Assembly (NCBI GenBank): GCA_965207225.1
Contig: CBDBLV010000005.1
Location: 96,001-160,000, forward strand
From: Dehalococcoidia bacterium
GTDB lineage: Bacteria > Chloroflexota > Dehalococcoidia > Plut-88900
DNA length: 64,000 bases
Reading direction: 5' to 3'
Under the pieces are notes generated by a model. That model did not search any database, was not told the origin of the DNA, and was given only the letters and a program-made list of their open reading frames with translations. Of the stretch, positions 6,832 to 36,081 are shown piece by piece; positions within the stretch are counted from its first letter, which is position 1; every line of letters begins with the position of its first letter. The translations under genes and the position numbers were made by a program.

Positions 6832-7430
6832 ATGCACGGGGTGGAGATTACGGCTTGATGACCAAGCTGAAGAGGCCTTCGCTTTGGGCATTCATCGGCT
6901 TTCTGGTGGTCACGGCTATCGTGGCGATCGTGGCGGTGGTGAGCGGGGACTTCGGGGATTTCGAAGCCAAGGTGCTGATAACGAGCCTGATCATCTCCGG
7001 CGCGAGCGTGTGCGTGATGGCCTACGCCATCTTTGCCGAGAGGAGCGGCCGGGTGAGGGTAGGCCAGGTCGGGGTGGCGCTTACAGTCGTGGCGGCGGGG
7101 CTGCTGCTGGTGGGCATGTGGTCCGAGAGGGGCGAGGATGAGTTCTGGAAGGCGACCTTGACCTTGTTGATTCTCGCGGTTGGGCTGGCCTACGCCCTGC
7201 TCCTGCTGCTGCCCGATCTCAAGGGCAAGCAGAGATGGGTTCACACAACCTCCTCGGTCTCGATAGGGGCGCTGGCGGCCATGATGATACTTGCCATCTG
7301 GGTGGAGTTTTCCGAGGGCTGGTACATCCGCCTATTAGCGGTGGTTGCGATACTGGTCGCCCTGCAGACGCTGATAATCCCGGTGTTGATGTGGCTACGC
7401 AAGATGTCGGAGCGGGAGGGTGGAGGCTAG
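6828..7430 (+). CDS. Hypothetical membrane protein (~6 TM)
   Basis: Six hydrophobic segments; ATGA overlap with the upstream gene. Confidence 0.7.
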
Positions 7431-8467
7431 AAGAGCTCGCCGTCGCCGCCGTTGAGGGATGGGGGGATGGGGAGTTGGGGGAGCTCGGCTTTTTCGCGGA
7501 TGCGGTTTTCGAGGGAGAAGGCCATTTCGGGATTGCTCCGGAGGTACTCCTTGGCGTTCTCGCGACCCTGGCCCAGGCGGGTCTCGTCCCAGGAGTAGAA
7601 GGCGCCGCTTTTCCTGAGGATGCCGTACTCGACGCCGAGGTCCACTAGGTCTCCTTCGCGGCTGATGCCCCGGTTGAACATGATGTCGAACTCTGCGATG
7701 CGGAAGGGGGCGGCGACCTTGTTCTTGACGACCTTGGCCCGCACCCGGTTCCCGACCACGACCGACTGCTGCTTTATGGCTTCGATCCTTCGCAAGTCGA
7801 TGCGGACGGAGCTGTAGAACTTCAGGGCCCGACCGCCGGGGGTGACCTCCGGGTTGCCGAACATGATGCCGACCTTCTCCCGGAGCTGGTTGATGAAGAC
7901 GACGGCGCAGTGGGAGCGGCTGGTGGCGGCGGTGAGCTTGCGGAGGGCCTGGGACATGAGGCGTGCCTGGAGGCCGACATGGGTGTCGCCCATCTCGCCT
8001 TCGATCTCGGCGCGGGGTACGAGGGCGGCTACGGAGTCGATGACGACGATATCGACGGCGTTGGAGCGGATGAGGGCCTCGGCGATTTCGAGGGCCTGCT
8101 CGCCGGTGTCGGGTTGGGAGATGAGGAGGTCTTCGATTTTGATGCCGCAGTTGCCGGCGTAGGAGGGGTCGAGGGCGTGCTCGGCGTCAATGTAGGCAGC
8201 CATGCCGCCGTTGGCTTGGGCCTGGGCGATGAGGTGCTGGGCGAGGGTGGACTTGCCTGCGGACTCAGCGCCGAAGACCTCGATGATGCGGCCCTTAGGG
8301 ATGCCGCCGATGCCGAGGGCGATGTCGAGGCCGAGGGAGCCGGTAGGGATGGCTTCGACGGTGAGGGCTCGGGAAGCGTCGCCGAGGCGCATGATGGAGC
8401 CCTGGCCAAATTGCTTTTCTATGTGTCCAAGGGCCAGTTCGAGGGCTTTGGTTTTCTCGGTTGTCAT
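7427..8467 (-). CDS. recA: Recombinase RecA
   Basis: GAESAGKST Walker [31 protein letters not shown]. Start trimmed to MTTEK (8467). Confidence 0.98.
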
Positions 8468-8474
8468 GATTGGC

Positions 8475-8503
8475 ATGATAGCACAAATGGGGCGGGTATT
8501 TAA
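8475..8503 (-). promoter_or_regulatory. recA promoter (extended -10), probably leaderless transcript
   Basis: TTAAAT-N17-TATCAT with TG extension; the -10 ends 7 nt before the ATG and there is no SD. Confidence 0.55.
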
Positions 8504-8562
8504 TTGAACTTTGATTGAAGATTGATTGATCGTTGATTGAACTCGTAGCTGTTTTGATTGAA
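8500..8562. repeat. 11-bp-phased TTGATTGAA direct repeats (copy A)
   Basis: Units at 8500, 8511, 8522, 8533 and 8554; homologous to 32514-32554. Confidence 0.85.
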
Positions 8563-8596
8563 TGACGCCTGAACAGTCGGAGTGAGGAAAACCCAT

Positions 8597-8868
8597 CCCC
8601 AGATTCCTCGCGGGGCATCGGAATGACAGAGAGAAAGAGGGTAGGGTGGGGGAGCCGTACGAGACGAGTTGGCAAGGCGTGGGCCACCCTCCGCTCATAC
8701 TTCGAGAGCCTCAGCACGAGCGGCCCAGCACCCGGGGATGGATTCCGGCTCGGGGGCCGGAATGACGGCAAGTGGGGGGAAGGGTGAGTTGCGGGGTTGT
8801 GGGTGACTTTCTCGGAGGGATGGATTCCCCCCCGACTTCTCGGGGGCAGGCTTTCCTCGGGAATGACG
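8597..8868. repeat. Cluster of REP-like palindromes (GATTCC...GGAATGAC)
   Basis: 33-bp CCCCAGATTCCTCGCGGGGCATCGGAATGACAG is identical at 8597, 32591 and 33701; related units near 8733 and 8818. Confidence 0.8.
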
Positions 8869-8899
8869 ATATAAAGAGCGGGGATGATGGTGGGGGAGG

Positions 8900-9563
8900 T
8901 CGGGTTGTTCGGTTGTGGGGTCTGGGTTTGCATTTTGGTCTGTCTGTTGGGTTTTGGGTGGGCGATGGAAGGTCCGGGACTCTCACGCAGGATCTCTTTG
9001 GCACCTACGCCGACGCTTGTGGCATCGGCGGCTGTCCTGCCATTCCCTACACGCATGCCTTGGGAGACTTGCCGGTGTCGAGGGCGTCTCTGCGCGGGGC
9101 CTTCTGTTCTCCGCATCAACGCTCGACCGCTATGCGGAGCAGCATTCGACTCGAAGCCGTCACGGGGGAACTGTGTCCTCCGATGGCGGCAATTATGGAG
9201 CCGCGTAGGGGCTCTAGGGCCCTAATCCCGGTAACGCCGGGCCGTACACTTTCGCGGGCAAGTCAATGCCAGCGACATAGGCGTCCCAAGATAGGGAGCA
9301 CCGATTCGGCTGGGCCCCTGGAAGGGGGTGTGCCGCTTAGAGCTGATGGACCTTCCATCGCCTGGATGGATGGGGAAGGGGCACGGGACCCGTAGTGAGG
9401 GGATTACGTTCCTGGCTTGTGCCTCGGGCCTGCGCGAGGGCCGTTGGTATTGGCCAGGGCGTTTAGTTCCCCGATTGCTCGGGGACGATGCCTCTGGTCG
9501 GGTCTCGGGGGGTTTCCCCGGGTTTTTGGTTCCTCCTTCGATTATCAGATATTTGTTCGATCG
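8900..9563 (-). ncRNA. Candidate large structured ncRNA / long leader (copy A)
   Basis: Own promoter; 15-bp long-range helix 8961-8975/9348-9362; covarying stems versus copy B; no credible ORF. Confidence 0.6.
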
Positions 9564-9569
9564 CAGGGT

Positions 9570-9598
9570 ATGATAGTACAGTCGGACAGGTGTGTCAA
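9570..9598 (-). promoter_or_regulatory. Near-consensus sigma70 promoter of the candidate ncRNA (copy A)
   Basis: TTGACA-N17-TATCAT; conserved in copy B. Confidence 0.8.
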
Positions 9599-29292: not shown

Positions 29293-32425
<3,133 letters not shown>

Positions 32426-32446
32426 TTACAAAACCTCGACCAAAAA

Positions 32447-32472
32447 CATTGTATCACAAACGGCGGTTATTT
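32447..32472 (-). promoter_or_regulatory. Extended -10 promoter toward gyrB, similar to the recA promoter
   Basis: AAATAACCGCCGTTTGTGATACAATG versus recA AAATACCCGCCCCATTTGTGCTATCATG. Confidence 0.5.
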
Positions 32473-32513
32473 TGTAGCCAGGGGGTGTGCGTACCACAAG
32501 ATGTTGCGGAGCT

Positions 32514-32554
32514 TTGATTGAACATTGATTGAACTCGTGGCTGTTTTGATTGAA
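32514..32554. repeat. 11-bp-phased TTGATTGAA repeats (copy B)
   Basis: Units at 32514, 32525 and 32546. Confidence 0.85.
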
Positions 32555-32754
32555 TGACGCCTGGAGGGATTGCATGGGAGGGAAACACCACCCCAGATTC
32601 CTCGCGGGGCATCGGAATGACAGTGTGAAGGGCATTGGTTGGTGGTTGCAGCCCCGCACGCCGGGGAGGGGACACCACCCCGTTCCGCTCTTGAGACCCT
32701 TCGACTCCGCTCAGGGCGAGCGGAACCCCACCCATGGATTCCGGCTCGGGCGTG

Positions 32755-33438
32755 GGGTTGTTTGGTTGTGGGGTCTGGGTTTTCATGTTGTTCTGGCTGT
32801 TGGGTTTTGGGTCGGCGATGGAAGGTCCGGGACTCTGGTGCAGGATGACTATGACACCTACGCCGACGCTGGCAGCATCGGCGGTGTCCTGCCGTATCCC
32901 CACTCATGCCATTGGGGACTTGCCGGTGTCGAGGGCGTCCCTGGGTGGGGCATTCCGTCCTGCATCAGCGCTCGACCGCTGCGCAGGACAGCATTCGGCT
33001 CGAACCGTCATGGGCGGAACGGAATCCGCCGATAGTGACGGCAGTGGAGCCGCGTAGGGGCTCTAGGGCCCTAATCCCGGAAGCGCCGGGCCGTAGAATT
33101 TCGCCGACGAGTCAATGCCAGCGACATAGGCGTCCCAATACAGGGAGCACCGATTCGGCAGAGGCCCCTGGAAAGGGGTGTACCGCGTAGAGCAGATGGA
33201 CCTTCCATCGCCTGGGATCAGGGAAGGGGCACGGGACCCGTGGTGAGGGGGTGACGCTCTTGGCTTGGGCCTCGGGCCTGCGCGAGAGCCTTTGGGGTGG
33301 GCTGGGGCGTTGAGTCCCCCGACCCCCGACTGCTCGGGGGCAGGCTTTCTCGGGGGCGGTGCCTTGGGTCGGGTCTCGGGGGCTTCCCCGGGTTTTTGGT
33401 TCCTCCTTTGATGATGTGAGTTAGTGTTCGATCGGACG
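32755..33438 (-). ncRNA. Candidate large structured ncRNA / long leader (copy B)
   Basis: 15-bp helix 32814-32828/33198-33212; colinear with 8900-9563, with compensatory changes. Confidence 0.6.
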
Positions 33439-33444
33439 GAGGAT

Positions 33445-33473
33445 ATGATAGTACGGTCGGACAGGTGTGTCAA
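33445..33473 (-). promoter_or_regulatory. Near-consensus sigma70 promoter of the candidate ncRNA (copy B)
   Basis: TTGACA-N17-TATCAT. Confidence 0.8.
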
Positions 33474-33556
33474 GAGCAAATGTGCGGCTTTGGGGGGGAA
33501 TATCTGAACTGTGATTCGTGGGATTGATGGATTGGTCTGATTTGTTGGGGGGAGGG

Positions 33557-34001
33557 ATGCAAGTCTTGGCGTGGTTGGCGGGCGGGGTACCCACGAGGGG
33601 CACCCCTACAGGGGAGGGAGAGAAGAACAGAGGCCGACGTGGGTATGTCGCACCCACGTCGGCCTCTGGTTTGGTACTGGGGGAGGAGGAGGGAATCCCA
33701 CCCCAGATTCCTCGCGGGGCATCGGAATGACAGTTGCCTTTAGTTCGGTACTGGGTCGGTACTGGGGAGGAGGATGGTAGGGTTTTGGGGACATGCAAGT
33801 CTTAGCGTGGGTGGGGGGCAGGGCACCCACAAGGGGCACCCCGCCCCATTCCGCTCTTGAGACTCCCTCGAGGGACTCGGGACAGGCTCTTCGACTCCGC
33901 TCAGGGCGAGCGGAACCCCACACCGGGGATGGATTCCTCCGACCCCCGACTGCTCGAGGGCATGCTTTTATCGAGGGGCAGGCTTTAGTCGGGAATGAGG
34001 G
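33557..34001. repeat. Mosaic REP/BIME-like palindrome cluster
   Basis: GTAG-type REP (33585-33609), GCCGACGTGGGT...ACCCACGTCGGC hairpin, 33-bp unit at 33701, and a CTTCGACTCCGCTCAGGGCGAGCGGAACCCCA unit shared with ~32700. Confidence 0.75.
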
Positions 34002-34085: not shown

Positions 34086-34162
34086 GGGCGGTTAGCTCAG
34101 TTGGTGAGAGCGCCTGCTTCACACGCAGGAGGTCGCTGGTTCGAGTCCAGCATCGCCCACCA
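34086..34162 (+). tRNA. tRNA-Val(CAC)
   Basis: Cloverleaf; CCTGC-TTCACAC-GCAGG anticodon arm; GGTTCGAGTCC; CCA end. Confidence 0.97.
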
Positions 34163-34200
34163 TGAGAGCGGGAGGAGCCGGGCCCCGGGTGGGTGCATAG

Positions 34201-34287
34201 GCCGAAGTGGCGGAACGGCAGACGCGCTGCGTTCAGGGCGCAGTGTCCCTTGAGGACGTGTGGGTTCAAATCCCACCTTCGGCACCA
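34201..34287 (+). tRNA. tRNA-Leu(CAG)
   Basis: GCCGAAG/CTTCGGC acceptor stem, long variable arm, CTGCG-TTCAGGG-CGCAG, CCA end. Confidence 0.97.
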
Positions 34288-34327
34288 ATACTTGAGATTA
34301 CGGCTATAATCTGTTCCTGGCGATGAA

Positions 34328-34404
34328 GCGCTTGTAGCTCAGATGGATAGAGCGCGGCCCTGCGGAGGCCGAGGTCGTGGGTTCGAGCCCCGCCAAGCGC
34401 GCCA
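34328..34404 (+). tRNA. tRNA-Arg(GCG)
   Basis: GCGCTTG/CAAGCGC acceptor stem, CGGCC-CTGCGGA-GGCCG, CCA end. Confidence 0.95.
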
Positions 34405-36081
34405 GACTTTTCTAATTCTCGGGAGTGGGGCGGTTAGCTCAGTTGGTGAGAGCGCTTGCCTTACAAGCAAGAGGTCACTGGTTCGAGTCCAGTACCGCCC
34501 ACCAGCGACTCCCATACTGCGAACTCCCCTGCCCAGGGCGACCTCCGCCAGGTCTGCCCCGCCTATGGGAGAGTCCTCCGGGGTAGGGATTGAGTAGTGG
34601 ATCGTCGCCCTGCCGGGCCTGACCTCGATCTCGTTGACGAAGGACCGGATGAAGGCCCGCGACTCGGTAATCTCGCTCTCCCTTAGGAACCTGCTCATGT
34701 CCAGGGCGAAGGCCGCTATGGTTTCCACCTTGTCCAGGGTCACCCTGCGCTTCGACAGCATGGCCCTGGCATCCTCGGCGGCGGCCTCCAGCTTCTCCTT
34801 GCGCTCCCGGTGCTCCTTGATGCGGTCCGTGGCGTCGGACATCTCGATCTCGGTGGTCTCGATGACCTGCCAGATGCGCCCCAGCCGCCGCTTCACCTCC
34901 TCCAGCTCCTCCTCGATGACCTTCAGCCGCTGGCGCTGCTCCCTGGCCACCCCGTCCATCTCCTCGTCCACGATCTTGACCAGTTCGGTGATGTTGGACT
35001 CGGTGAGGATGTTGTCCCGGATGTTTTCAACTATCAGGCCCTCGAACCGCTTGGCGTTGAGCCTGGGGGTGGTGCAGGTCCCGCTGCCCTTCTTGAGCAG
35101 GGAGTGGCAGACGTAGTAGGTGTACTTGCCGCCCTTGGCCTCGGCGGCGGTGAGGGCCTTCCTGCACCTCTGGCACTTGACCAGCCCGCTGAGCAGGTAG
35201 GGGCTGGAGGCCCGGCGGGGGTGGACGGCCTTGGGCGCTCGTGAGCGCAGCAGCCGTCTCACCTGGCGGTACTTGCTCTTGGAGATCAGGGCGGGGAACG
35301 CCTTCTCCACCCGCACCGGCTCCGCGCCGTCCCTGGCCTTGGTTCCCCACACCAGAACCCCCGTATAGGCTTCGTTGGTGAGCATGGTGTGGACGGCGCT
35401 CTTGAGCCACTGCTTGCCCCTGGGAGAGGGAACGCCCTCGGCGTTGAGGGTCTTGGTGATGTCCAGGGAGCTATGGCCCTTCAGCGCCATGTCGAAGACG
35501 CGCTTGACCACGGCGTCGGCGGGCGGGTCGGGCTCCAGCTTGGGGCGCTTCTTGGCCCCGTCCTGGACGTAGACCTTGCGGTAGCCGTAGGGGGCGAAGG
35601 TGGCGACCCAGAAGCCTCTCGACGCCGCCTCCCGCATTCCACGGGAGACCTCCTCTGCAAGATTGGCGCTGTAGAACTCGTCCACCGACTCGATGATGGC
35701 CTCCATGAGCTTGCCGGTGGGGGAGTCGTCGGCGTGCTCGGTGATGGAGGTGACGCGGATGCCCCTGCGTCTGAGCATGGACTTGAAGGCGACGGCGTGC
35801 TCCCGCTTGCGGGTGAATCTCGAGAATTTCCAGACCAAGATTTCCTGGAACGGGGCCTCGGGCTTGCCCGCCTCGTCCAGCATCTTCTGGAACTGGGGAC
35901 GGTCGGCGATGCGGCCACTCTCGGCTTCGTCCACGTACTCCCTTGCCACGACGTAGCCGTTCTTCTGGGCGTAGTCCCTGAGCGCCCGCATCTGGGCGGC
36001 CACGGACAGGTCCACGTCCTGGCGGTCGCTGGAGACCCTGGCGTAGAGGGCGACGGGTATCAACTCGGTTCGTTCACTCAT
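34339..36081 (-). CDS. Large serine recombinase/integrase
   Basis: ALYARVSS...Q, WKFSRFTR, PYGY, recombinase domain, LLSGLVKCQRC zinc ribbon, coiled coil; AAGGAG RBS before ATG 36081. Confidence 0.93.
   Translation of the reverse strand: MSERTELIPVALYARVSSDRQDVDLSVAAQMRALRDYAQKNGYVVAREYVDEAESGRIADRPQFQKMLDEAGKPEAPFQEILVWKFSRFTRKREHAVAFKSMLRRRGIRVTSITEHADDSPTGKLMEAIIESVDEFYSANLAEEVSRGMREAASRGFWVATFAPYGYRKVYVQDGAKKRPKLEPDPPADAVVKRVFDMALKGHSSLDITKTLNAEGVPSPRGKQWLKSAVHTMLTNEAYTGVLVWGTKARDGAEPVRVEKAFPALISKSKYRQVRRLLRSRAPKAVHPRRASSPYLLSGLVKCQRCRKALTAAEAKGGKYTYYVCHSLLKKGSGTCTTPRLNAKRFEGLIVENIRDNILTESNITELVKIVDEEMDGVAREQRQRLKVIEEELEEVKRRLGRIWQVIETTEIEMSDATDRIKEHRERKEKLEAAAEDARAMLSKRRVTLDKVETIAAFALDMSRFLRESEITESRAFIRSFVNEIEVRPGRATIHYSIPTPEDSPIGGADLAEVALGRGVRSMGVAGGRYWTRTSDLLLVRQALSPTELTAPLPRIRKVWRAWRGSNPRPRPPQGRALSI
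34428..34504 (+). tRNA. tRNA-Val(TAC); probable integration site
   Basis: GGGCGGT/ACCGCCC acceptor stem, CTTGC-CTTACAA-GCAAG, CCA end. Confidence 0.97.

Follow-up and report, generated by a model that had tools for sequence, protein, structure and literature searches.

The DNA that precedes gyrB and recA in the window (the whole 64,000-nt stretch of a Dehalococcoidia contig analysed here) is probably a chain of four independent promoter-proximal repeat families, at the heart of which, judging from sequence, stand structured RNA genes that are specific to the genus, carry their own promoter, lack an open reading frame (ORF) and are propagated as DNA. On this reading, recA and gyrB are incidental neighbours of the unit. 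The preliminary description of the window knew of two copies; genome-wide mapping makes this an undercount by a factor of >20, with 38 full copies (both 5′ and 3′ modules present), 2 whose core is a variant, 1 interrupted by a 2.6-kb insertion sequence and 7 from a sister family, roughly 48 in all.

Results

The ~680 nt upstream of gyrB and of recA are 81% identical to each other. With the gyrB copy as query, 692 of 701 bases were matched in the recA copy (81% identity, E = 4.7e-189), and the aligned span, on the minus strand, begins with the -35 box and takes in the whole of an A/C-rich tail (33473 to ~32760 on the gyrB side, 9598 to ~8905 on the recA side), the two copies being separated by 1-nt indels and by changes that preserve helices. 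The preliminary description had reported a shared architecture upstream of both genes in the same orientation, and all of its parts are found in that order: on the gene's strand, each copy has a promoter followed by a folded RNA, palindromes, the TTCAATCAA array and the gene.

On the gyrB side, where all features lie on the minus strand, the promoter of the RNA unit (TTGACA-17-TATCAT, 33445..33473) agrees with the consensus at 11 of 12 positions and belongs to "type A", a module with 18 matches genome-wide that is common to 18 copies. It is the sole sigma-70-like site in 32250-33700; in both copies the RNA-unit promoter is the only such site in its region, where shuffled sequences lead one to expect 0.3-0.4. 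The RNA unit itself (32755..33438, with a start inferred ~7 nt past the -10 box and an approximate 3′ boundary) comprises a leader, the motif AAGGAGGA (33408-33401), helices P2 and P3 with an A-domain insert, helix P4 with a type-2 cargo and the A/C-rich tail. The P4 arms, which read GGCGATGGAAGGTCC (5′ arm, 33198..33212) and GGACCTTCCATCGCC (3′ arm, 32814..32828) on the RNA strand, are 15 nt each and 100% complementary, with 369 nt between them. REP-type palindromes fill 32591..32750 (e.g., GTCATTCCGATGCCCCGCGAGGAATCTGGGG at 32621-32591) between the RNA unit and the TTCAATCAA array, and are independent repeat families, with 35-76 genome matches per 20-nt bin. The array (the "tca" module, with an 11-nt period) occupies 32514..32562 and is followed by gyrB (29897..32305; Pfam HATPase_c and DNA_gyraseB).

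The recA side repeats this layout, again on the minus strand, with a TTGACA-17-TATCAT promoter at 9570..9598 (11 of 12 consensus positions), an RNA unit at 8905..9563 with AAGGAGGA at 9538-9531, a type-2 cargo and the A/C-rich tail, P4 arms at 9348-9362 and 8961-8975, REP-type palindromes at 8575..8900, the TTCAATCAA array at 8522..8570 and recA at 7427..8467 (Pfam RecA, E = 2.6e-132). The "ATG stub" noted earlier after the RNA fold is present in both window copies (32786-32784 and 8933-8931, minus strand) but is not a conserved start, an ATG occurring within the first 45 nt of the tail in 33 of 72 copies.

The second promoter, which had been counted as part of the composite, does not belong to it. 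To judge by comparison between genomes, the "second promoters" are the ancestral promoters of recA and gyrB and lie outside the repeat. The extended -10 promoter of gyrB (TGTGATACAAT, 32448..32458, minus strand), followed by a conserved leader as far as the ATG at 32305, is kept in all eight other genomes of the genus and is recognisable in two other genera (G010 and G011); promoter and leader are 100% identical between the genome studied here (G000) and its congener G008. That of recA (TGTGCTATCAT, 8475..8485, minus strand) is likewise kept in all eight, element-free genomes included. The recA mRNA is probably leaderless, because the ATG at 8467 lies 7 nt past the -10 box. Both extended -10 boxes were assigned by eye, and a simple consensus scan does not report them.

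Across the family the units measure 345-790 nt and have no ORF. Among 72 collected copies, 59 have a TTGAC-N16-18-TAnnnT promoter that ends 29-36 nt ahead of AAGGAGG, so that the SD-like motif AAGGAGGA stands 29-36 nt past the -10 box in these 59. Three promoter types are seen, each with its own conserved spacer, and -10 boxes in the family read TATCAT, TAAACT or TATATT. Type-1 cargo is found with all three promoter types, which shows mosaicism. A short palindrome, GTTCGAAC or GTCTAGAC, was noted by eye after the -10 box in most units. The core is invariant in sequence and consists of P2 (CAGGGAAG:CTTCCCTG) and P3 (GACCC:GGGTC), the P3 loop carrying optional inserts. P4 is a 15-bp helix that closes the cargo domain, of which the 72 copies contain at least 11 types, each 200-545 nt long and internally structured. 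P4-flanked cargo occurs in two 5′ contexts, those of the main and the sister family, and P4 arm pairs genome-wide all lie inside one of these two scaffolds, save for a 12-nt pair at G000:C5:4737-4941, a chance match within a coding gene. Among the 39 matches to the 5′ core in the genome, none is an empty scaffold. The first 55 nt of the tail average 46% A, 38% C, 11% G and 5% T over the 72 copies, a composition of the rut type (C-rich, G-poor and untranslated over ~60-80 nt).

The other modules occur in their own right. The TTCAATCAA array has 40 long matches genome-wide, 33 of them co-oriented with the next gene; it follows 17 of the 38 RNA units, and 23 of the 40 long matches lie away from any RNA unit. 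A module made of the tail end plus a hairpin has 16 matches, all 16 co-oriented with the next gene and ending exactly at its TTGAMC -35 box.

The predicted fold of the gyrB copy has a minimum free energy of -291.4 kcal/mol (z = -7.6), and none of 20 shuffled sequences folds as well. The 83 pairs of a cargo alignment (A2) are 98.9% paired, 10 of them show compensatory changes, and none of 500 shuffles attains its covariation score. In the variant core (CAGGGGAA:TTCCCCTG), P2 pairing survives two double changes. The gyrB unit is ~88% identical overall between G000 and G008, near the neutral rate (fourfold-degenerate sites of gyrB differ at 0.099); 6 of 166 sites in predicted stems differ, all six changes preserving the pair, against 32 of 230 non-stem sites, a contrast with some circularity in it, since conserved columns are favoured in the consensus structure. 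Counts of G:U versus A:C in helices common to both strands (4 vs. 5, 12 vs. 6 and 4 vs. 2) cannot tell the strand. The reverse complement of the most conserved 5′ core resembles an intrinsic terminator, and AAGGAGGA is able to pair with the leader in some copies. Two longer-range pairings were rejected. A leader-to-tail pairing that would close the whole RNA gave duplexes of -9.3 kcal/mol with the unit's own tail and -9.1 kcal/mol with the tails of other units, and for a pairing of the 5′ AAGGAGGA with a downstream TCTCCTC the partner is absent from short-form units, an internal GAGGA fitting better.

We take the units to be non-coding because 1-nt indels separate the copies and because no frame finds a protein match: none of 72 open frames from 11 cargo types and none of 7 sister-family frames matched Pfam or PHROGs beyond noise, the best E-values (0.011-0.091) failing the cut-offs. 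In a search of the whole window with Rfam 15, 4 tRNAs alone reached the gathering threshold and the gyrB and recA units had no match. Eleven loci representing the 11 cargo types, run against 4227 Rfam models at E up to 0.1, and the gyrB copy at E up to 10, returned hairpin-level noise far below gathering scores, and no cargo type showed likeness to rRNA. No blastn match was found in 50,697 phage records. A search for mobile genes in the genome yielded Y1_Tnp 0, TnpB 0, RVT_1 4, IS21-like 1 and IS481-like 1, none of them linked to units.

Judged with crude in-house gene calls, 34 of 37 units share the orientation of the gene that follows; they lie in tandem intergenic regions 17 times in co-orientation versus 2 times against the gene, in divergent regions 17 times and in a convergent region once. 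A Pfam scan covered and named 26 of the 37 downstream genes, and RecA and GyrB are the only repair or topology genes among the 26. The other 24 include rpoB, nusA, S15, deformylase, two tRNA synthetases, MnmA and a MoaA-like gene as well as amidohydrolases, a CoA-transferase, transporters and an IS481 transposase. The preliminary description had set against a regulon the picture of many copies beside random genes in random orientation; copies are many and the genes are functionally unrelated, but orientation is non-random. Nor does one RNA type go with one pathway, as in riboswitches: type-1 cargo lies upstream of rpoB, nusA, leuS, deformylase, a MoaA-like gene, FBP phosphatase, amidohydrolases and others, and cargo varies between species at the same gene. 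A crude scan found no intrinsic-terminator-like site before the next gene in 22 of 37 units, with spacers of 61-198 nt in these cases, and terminator-like hairpins after the other 15, of which ~10 are long and perfect and carry a T-run. The genome encodes both Rho and RNase J.

The core model (R1) has matches in eight of nine genomes of the genus and in none of three other genera of the family; among 151 genomes from 110 genera of the class, matches are confined to the genus. A weak match outside it (G036, E = 6e-4) proved to be a shared REP palindrome and not the RNA core. Upstream of recA, G000, G008 and G007 have the unit and G001, G002, G003, G004, G005 and G006 lack it; it is missing there in six of the eight other genomes, and presence/absence polymorphism is confirmed. 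The recA units of the three species differ in promoter variant and in cargo, which is of types 2, 1 and 4. The TTCAATCAA array on the recA side is also found in G008, G007, G005 and G001 and is absent in G002, G003, G004 and G006. Where the unit sits here, relatives have an older distal recA promoter that precedes the leaderless one by 45-190 nt. At sites shared between species the cargo is the same at 5/5 loci against the closer record and at 0/4 against the more distant one; sites are often kept, but the unit or its cargo is swapped. The REP zone upstream of gyrB cannot be aligned between G000 and G008. Inspection by eye revealed no target-site duplication, either at the ends of units or around P4, in flanks whose boundaries are blurred by REP turnover. 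Short-read contigs of 4 runs over 31800-33900 break at the repeats, and none spans the region.

Discussion

The explanation that we consider probable would work as follows. Each unit would give rise to a discrete non-coding transcript, as its promoter suggests, whose 5′ end would be shielded by the SD-like motif in the manner of STAB-SD and whose transcription would stop by Rho loading on the C-rich, G-poor tail or, where one is present, at a terminator module. Units would multiply and exchange as DNA, through duplication together with gene conversion or whole-unit replacement between copies. Propagation at the DNA level is suggested because the promoter travels with the RNA; for the same reason retro-transposition of whole units was set aside despite the four RVT_1 genes in the genome, since a promoter upstream of the start site is not copied via an RNA intermediate. 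The only units to persist would be those immediately ahead of a gene promoter and in the direction of the gene, because read-through elsewhere would produce antisense RNA or transcription collision. The invariant core and the slowly evolving predicted stems point to a role that would need the folded RNA, either as an RNA that binds protein or self-assembles and acts in trans, or as a structure required for the spread of the unit itself.

Unlikely, in our view, is a cassette acting in cis, in which a strong distal promoter and a long nuclease-resistant leader, read through past the gene's own promoter, enable a slow-growing symbiont to express its housekeeping and catabolic genes more strongly or more stably, and in which the right end may supply or abut a proximal -35 box. 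Such a cassette would account for the co-orientation of 34 of 37 units, for the tail-end-plus-hairpin module that stops at a TTGAMC -35 box in 16 of 16 co-oriented cases, for the placing of the recA unit at the older distal promoter of the relatives and for the many highly expressed core genes among the neighbours (rpoB, nusA, S15, deformylase and tRNA synthetases). Read-through into the gene may occur, since the crude scan left 22 of 37 units with no terminator-like site within spacers of 61-198 nt. However, a stabilising leader needs neither at least 11 alternative domains of 200-545 nt nor an invariant core, the cargo at the same gene is swapped between species, and the genes keep conserved promoters of their own. 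The terminator-like hairpins after 15 of 37 units, ~10 of them long and perfect with a T-run, and the untranslated tail of a Rho-loading type in a genome that encodes Rho also speak against it.

A more elaborate version of the trans-acting role, which we put forward tentatively and hold to be unlikely, is a scaffold-and-cargo system. The sites upstream of core genes would be fixed docking sites with a promoter and an invariant three-helix scaffold, into which at least 11 large structured domains would be shuffled by recombination across the core and the 15-bp P4 arms; the RNAs, freed at the P4 stalk, would act in trans, for example in RNA-protein or RNA-only assemblies for symbiosis or defence. 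We know of no described counterpart of a cassette-exchange system for RNAs.

The preliminary description had offered a mobile element that prefers promoter regions as one of two readings, and this was nearer the mark in that the family is multicopy, mosaic and polymorphic, but the element lacks outer terminal inverted repeats and, among the transposase families covered, a linked transposase. In its stricter form, a non-autonomous DNA transposon (MITE) in which a transposase supplied in trans moves the whole unit, or the cargo with its P4 arms, and the RNA folds only incidentally, it seems to us quite improbable. Copy number, the absence of ORFs, a length of 345-790 nt and the polymorphism at recA are what a MITE would show, and the P4 arms are perfect 15-bp inverted repeats around segments of 200-545 nt that occur in the 5′ contexts of both the main and the sister family. 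Yet in both window copies the outer ends have no inverted repeats, the sole long inverted repeat that they share being the internal P4; direct repeats flanking P4 or the unit were not seen by eye; arm pairs are confined to the two scaffolds bar the one chance coding match, with no empty scaffold among the 39 5′-core matches; Y1 transposase and TnpB were not found in the genome; and stem pairing has been kept through compensatory changes.

The other earlier reading, in which recA and gyrB would be controlled together by an RNA-linked regulon for DNA damage or supercoiling, is highly implausible despite the unit's presence at both genes in the same orientation and the palindrome (GTTCGAAC or GTCTAGAC, by eye) after the -10 box as a possible operator, given that repair or topology accounts for only 2 of the 26 neighbours that Pfam named, with no enrichment for repair or replication of the LexA/SOS or Deinococcus RDR type, that the unit is absent at recA in six of eight other genomes of the genus and differs in cargo among the three species that have it, and that the promoters of the genes themselves predate it.

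Parallels for parts of the system exist. BIMEs of E. coli and BOX elements of Streptococcus pneumoniae are mosaic interspersed repeats of 40-300 nt that are not known to carry a promoter of their own. Like them, the present elements are intergenic and multicopy, often lie near gene starts, can fold as RNA and join modules in varying combinations, with REP palindromes, terminator hairpins, the TTCAATCAA array, the tail-end module and the RNA unit combining freely; in these respects they are mosaic interspersed repeats. They differ in the size of the unit (345-790 nt), the near-consensus promoter, the invariant core, the cargo domains numbering at least 11 and the compensatory changes. Correia elements of Neisseria are MITEs with outward promoters, and insertion sequences create hybrid promoters. 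The units share with these that they are non-coding, multicopy, polymorphic and promoter-adjacent, with possible effects on neighbours and a right-end module that stops at a -35 box, but they show no outer terminal inverted repeats and no visible target duplication, and their promoter points inward, into their own RNA.

Large "ornate" ncRNAs such as OLE, GOLLD, ROOL, raiA and HEARO/omega RNA form Rfam families; two papers deal with RNAs of this kind (PMC5737381, PMC12286853). The likeness lies in a length of several hundred nt, many conserved helices, the lack of an ORF, a narrow taxonomic range and a function not evident from context. The family described here differs in having ~48 copies per genome with exchangeable domains and no Rfam match. 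OLE, GOLLD, ROOL and raiA are known as single-copy RNAs, HEARO being the exception. HEARO travels with IscB or IS605-type genes, whereas no associated protein gene was found here, and Y1 transposase and TnpB are absent.

For the putative fate of the transcript there are two models. STAB-SD is a 5′ stabiliser of the Bacillus thuringiensis cryIIIA mRNA, and the units may resemble it in placing a strong SD-like AAGGAGGA near the predicted 5′ end with no start codon after it, in an organism that encodes RNase J; here, however, the motif would protect a non-coding RNA, and it can pair with the leader in some copies. The processing stalks of rRNA are cut by RNase III. P4 (at least 15 bp) may be comparable as a long perfect helix formed by sequences that flank a large structured RNA, but the cargo has no likeness to rRNA. 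No paper on such a family in Dehalococcoidia or in sponge symbionts was found in the part of the literature that was accessible, which does not show that none exists. We are not aware of a described class of bacterial RNA that is at once so large, so numerous and so modular.

From the DNA that the two loci share, nothing specific follows as to how recA or gyrB is controlled. For the annotation of symbiont metagenome-assembled genomes the family is a warning, as short-read assemblies break at intergenic blocks of this kind, which also tempt one into false "regulon" readings. Provided that the RNAs are produced as predicted, the genus would devote ~0.7% of its genome to the family (~48 units of ~600 nt in 4.03 Mb) and would produce, each from a near-consensus promoter, large folded RNAs with a constant core and interchangeable domains from sites near core genes such as rpoB, nusA, recA and gyrB. 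The family would then give work on RNA structure a new object and would allow the spread and recombination of genes for structured RNAs to be studied.

Composition of the shared block

The element upstream of gyrB and recA is a promoter-bearing, non-coding, structured and modular unit that occurs in many copies, lies close to promoters in the orientation of the next gene, is exchanged between copies and, among the genomes searched, is restricted to one genus. On the minus strand, the stretches upstream of gyrB (window ~33473 to 32440) and recA (window ~9598 to 8475) have one block in common, which begins with a TTGACA-17-TATCAT promoter and extends through an A/C-rich tail. With the gyrB copy as query, 692 of 701 bases are matched by the recA copy (81% identity, E 4.7e-189), and the single-base indels and helix-preserving replacements between them form an RNA-like, not a coding-like, pattern. 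The unit promoter is the sole sigma-70-like site in either region (shuffles expect 0.3-0.4), and the gyrB copy has a fold of -291.4 kcal/mol (z -7.6), with none of 20 shuffles as good. Beyond the 3′ end of the unit follow REP-type palindromes, the TTCAATCAA array and the gene's extended -10 box, in this order on both sides. The anatomy given in the preliminary description was thus right, since promoter, fold, REP palindromes, array and -10 box were all found at both genes.

The surroundings of the gyrB copy hold further features. Compared with the recA copy, an extra REP-like hairpin of ~23 nt (AGCCTGCCCCCGAGCAGTCGGGGG) sits in its P3-loop insert (window ~33324-33346, minus strand), so REP palindromes land inside RNA units too. 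A cluster of four tRNAs (window 34086-34501, plus strand; Rfam tRNA, 52.9-77.9 bits) adjoins the unit on the opposite strand and, judged by eye, the same cluster flanks the unit in two relatives, G007 and G005. Upstream of the unit promoter lies an 18-bp perfect hairpin followed by TTCTTCTCTC (window 33628-33668, minus strand), a member of a repeated terminator-like family ("...CTAGAGGCA...TGCCTCTGTTCTTCTC") that is also found 3′ of about 10 of 37 RNA units.

Anatomy of the unit

Ahead of the units stand promoters of three types, every type having its own conserved spacer and near-consensus -35 and -10 boxes; a TTGAC-N16-18-TAnnnT promoter ends 29-36 nt 5′ of AAGGAGGA in 59 of 72 collected copies. 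The core, nearly invariant in sequence over these 72 copies from several species, is read as two helices, P2 (CAGGGAAG with CTTCCCTG) and P3 (GACCC with GGGTC), the loop of P3 taking optional inserts, REP palindromes among them. Natural short forms of 83-107 nt consist of the core without inserts, and a variant core (CAGGGGAA with TTCCCCTG) has two positions altered on both sides with pairing intact. P4, a perfect 15-bp helix (GGCGATGGAAGGTCC with GGACCTTCCATCGCC), closes an interchangeable cargo of ~200-545 nt. Clustering of the cargo from the 72 copies gave at least 11 unrelated types, and every type sampled more than once occurs in more than one species. Because all three promoter types are found ahead of type-1 cargo, the units are mosaics. 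The first 55 nt of the tail consist of 46% A, 38% C, 11% G and 5% T; the ATG recorded in the preliminary description is present in the tail of 33 of the 72 copies and absent from it in the rest.

By eye, a short palindrome stands just after the -10 box in nearly every unit (e.g. window 33431-33424 and 9553-9546, minus strand), reading GTTCGAAC or GATCGAAC with promoter types A and B and GTCTAGAC with type C, and might serve as the operator of a common regulator. CGAACAC also occurs in the spacer of an older distal recA promoter in the relatives G001 and G005.

Evidence for a structured non-coding RNA

In an alignment of 20 sequences of the cargo type common to the recA and gyrB copies, the consensus fold comprises 83 pairs with 98.9% of cells paired and two-sided changes in 10 pairs. 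Its covariation score and compensated-cell count were reached by none of 500 column shuffles, and sliding the partners by 1-3 columns lowers pairing to 34-39%. Between two sub-types of this cargo, several hairpins are swapped for different hairpins at the same position. When the gyrB-side copies of the source genome and its relative G008 are compared, changes fall at 6 of 166 sites in predicted stems, with the pair kept in all six, and at 32 of the 230 remaining sites. Set against the differences at fourfold-degenerate sites (0.099 in gyrB, 0.073 in recA), the stems are slower than neutral sites and the other unit sites change at about the neutral rate, though this contrast is to some extent circular, conserved columns being favoured by the consensus fold.

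No Rfam family matched the core or any of the 11 cargo types. Searches of Pfam and PHROGs matched none of the 72 open frames of at least 60 residues from these types and none of seven frames from a sister family (best E values of 0.011-0.091 miss the cut-offs), and blastn against 50,697 phage records gave no match to the unit. The presumed strand of the unit is assigned from its promoters; in helices common to both strands, G:U against A:C counts are 4 vs 5, 12 vs 6 and 4 vs 2. The reverse complement of the 5′ core (GAACCAAAAACCCGGGGAAGCCCCCGAG; window 33375-33392 and 9504-9522, plus strand) is scored as an intrinsic terminator, consisting of a GC hairpin with TTTTTGGTT after it, which may block antisense transcription into the promoter or, alternatively, may mean that the functional strand is other than assumed.

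Copies, repeat modules and gene context

Profile searches of the 4.03-Mb source genome found 39 5′-core, 48 "mid", 41 3′ and 43 TTCAATCAA modules. The element is not the pair known to the preliminary description: 38 units of 345-788 nt have both ends, one more is split and two have the variant core, and a sister family adds seven copies. In the split unit, a 2.6-kb insertion (G000:C1:67080-69660) separates the 5′ core from P2/P4, and we read this insertion as putatively IS21-like from its two long IstA/IstB-like frames (530 and 304 residues) on the opposite strand. The sister family (G000:C5:1736900-1737480; C2:179523, C3:167692, C3:256165, C5:1005067, C5:1190364, C5:1331083) has P4 and related cargo in common with the main units and differs in promoter (TTGCAC...TGCTATAAT or TGCTATACT) and leader, the latter being purine-rich with AAGGAG and ATG (ACG in place of ATG in one copy) and its frame broken by 1-nt indels. 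Public short-read contigs break at the repeats. Among the sequencing runs listed as containing the source sequence, the DNA runs include sponge metagenomes and none is an RNA run. The genome also carries four RVT_1 reverse-transcriptase genes, two in 586-residue frames with identical scores and two in frames of 641-652 residues (G000:C2:158087-158773, C5:1548409-1549095, C5:1553608-1554405, C5:1671488-1672288), and these four genes showed no link to the RNA units.

The TTCAATCAA array is a tandem repeat with a period of 11 nt and 3 to ~12 repeats, and 33 of its 40 long matches are co-oriented with the next gene; it lies 3′ of 17 of 38 RNA units, the other 23 long matches being away from any unit. 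A "tail-end plus hairpin" module (CCCCACAACTGAATA ... CCGAACGAGTACAC ...; n=16) is co-oriented with the next gene every time and stops exactly at a TTGAMC -35 box, with no similarity beyond. In a crude scan, a terminator-like hairpin with a T-run stands between unit and next gene in 15 of 37 cases, about 10 of them long perfect hairpins of one repeat family, and is absent in 22, the gyrB copy included. The composite thus amounts to a series of separable repeat families, all residing just upstream of promoters.

With genes from our own crude caller (3326 genes, 84.5% coding), the unit is co-oriented with the next gene in 34 of 37 cases, for which simple arithmetic gives a coin-toss chance of ~6e-8; on the upstream side, the neighbouring gene has the unit's orientation in 18 of 38 cases and the opposite one in 20. 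By intergenic type, 17 units are tandem and co-oriented vs 2 anti-oriented, 17 are divergent and one is convergent. Pfam naming covers 26 of the 37 downstream genes, the other 11 lying outside the scan: RecA, GyrB, RpoB, NusA, ribosomal protein S15, peptide deformylase, Glu/Gln-type and Leu-type tRNA synthetases, MnmA, a MoaA-like and another radical-SAM enzyme, FBPase_3, three amidohydrolases, CoA-transferase III, MmgE/PrpD, a Rieske protein, a thiolase-like protein, a ChsH2-like OB-fold protein, ATP-grasp_5, a 2-hydroxyacid dehydrogenase, Peptidase_S58, an MFS transporter, an ABC transporter and an IS481 transposase.

Distribution and turnover within the genus

Many copies were found by blastn in all 8 other genomes of the genus and none in three other genera of the family; the sole weak match in the rest of the class traces to a shared REP palindrome and not to the unit. 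A covariance model built on the natural short forms of the core matched 39 times in the source genome and 34 (G008), 46 (G005), 27 (G007), 10 (G001), 8 (G002), 10 (G006), 5 (G003) and 0 (G004) times in its relatives, with no match in the three other genera, and in a class sample of 151 genomes from 110 genera the match was confined to this genus.

All 8 other genomes retain the leaderless extended -10 promoter of recA, in which the ATG follows TATCAT by 7 nt. Only the source genome, G008 and G007 have the RNA unit at this gene, with cargo types 2, 1 and 4 and differing promoter variants; G005 and G001 have the TTCAATCAA array alone, and G002, G003, G004 and G006 have neither. The older distal TTGACA promoter occupies the place of the unit in unit-less species. 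Upstream of gyrB, a unit occurs in the source genome, G008, G007 and G005, the last with different cargo. At the unit's position in the recA locus of G005 (L075), ~190 nt upstream of the gene, we noted by eye a TTGACA-17-TATACT promoter driving ~60 nt with AAAAAACCCAGG and GAGTCCC that end in a hairpin and TTTTT; this could be what a deletion left of the unit or else a minimal version of it.

The gyrB promoter and leader are conserved through the genus and can still be recognised in two other genera. Weak 3′-module or "mid" matches in G003 and G004 and, by eye, a P4-arm-like stretch in G002 suggest that these genomes hold diverged units at gyrB. Between the source genome and G008, identity is ~97% in the gyrB coding sequence, 100% in the leader and ~88% in the RNA unit, and the REP zone is unalignable. 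The gyrB promoter with the first part of the leader (TACAATnTTTTTGGTCGAGGTTTTGTA; window 32305-32458, minus strand) is 100% identical between the two although fourfold sites differ by 10%; it is itself a candidate region for gyrB control. In a tblastn search of source-genome downstream proteins against 34 loci of relatives, at least 11 loci have the same neighbour gene. All 5 loci of the closer record (L046, L051, L054, L055, L073) agree with the source genome in cargo, against none of 4 in the more distant one (L052, L053, L059, L070), so sites are often kept while unit or cargo is replaced.

Proposed working and alternatives

The reading that we prefer, and hold to be reasonably probable, is that the unit makes its own discrete RNA, spreads and is exchanged at the DNA level and owes its orientation bias to selection. 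Its own promoter would transcribe it, and an SD-like motif close to the 5′ end would shield the RNA from 5′-exonuclease, as in the STAB-SD element, where such a motif near the 5′ end gives this protection; RNase J is encoded in the genome. The untranslated C-rich, G-poor tail would load Rho, which is likewise encoded, and elsewhere the terminator module would end the transcript. Since the promoter is situated 5′ of the transcript and yet travels and recombines with the RNA, spread and exchange probably occur on DNA. The orientation bias would reflect selection against antisense or head-on transcription, perhaps with some benefit from read-through.

The main competitor, though an unlikely one, is a cassette acting in cis that supplies a strong promoter and a stable leader to the next gene: it accounts for the orientation, for the lack of a terminator in many copies and for the position of the right end at a -35 box, but leaves unexplained why the core is invariant, why there are many large cargo domains and why these are exchanged at a fixed gene. 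A classical MITE is more doubtful still, as MITEs are defined by outer TIRs and neither window copy has any. A damage or supercoiling regulon is highly improbable: the observation of the composite holds, its reading as a regulon does not. Of the outcome named as refuting in the preliminary description, genome-wide mapping gave the many copies next to genes without enrichment for repair or topology (2 of the 26 named), but not the random orientation.

In its modular, promoter-proximal spread the unit resembles BIME and BOX mosaic intergenic repeats, and in size and fold the large ornate RNAs OLE, GOLLD, ROOL and raiA, although by Rfam comparison it is a member of none of these four. The titles and abstract openings reached by a literature search contained no description of the family. 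Judged from sequence, what lies beneath the recA/gyrB composite appears to be an undescribed and unusual RNA gene family.
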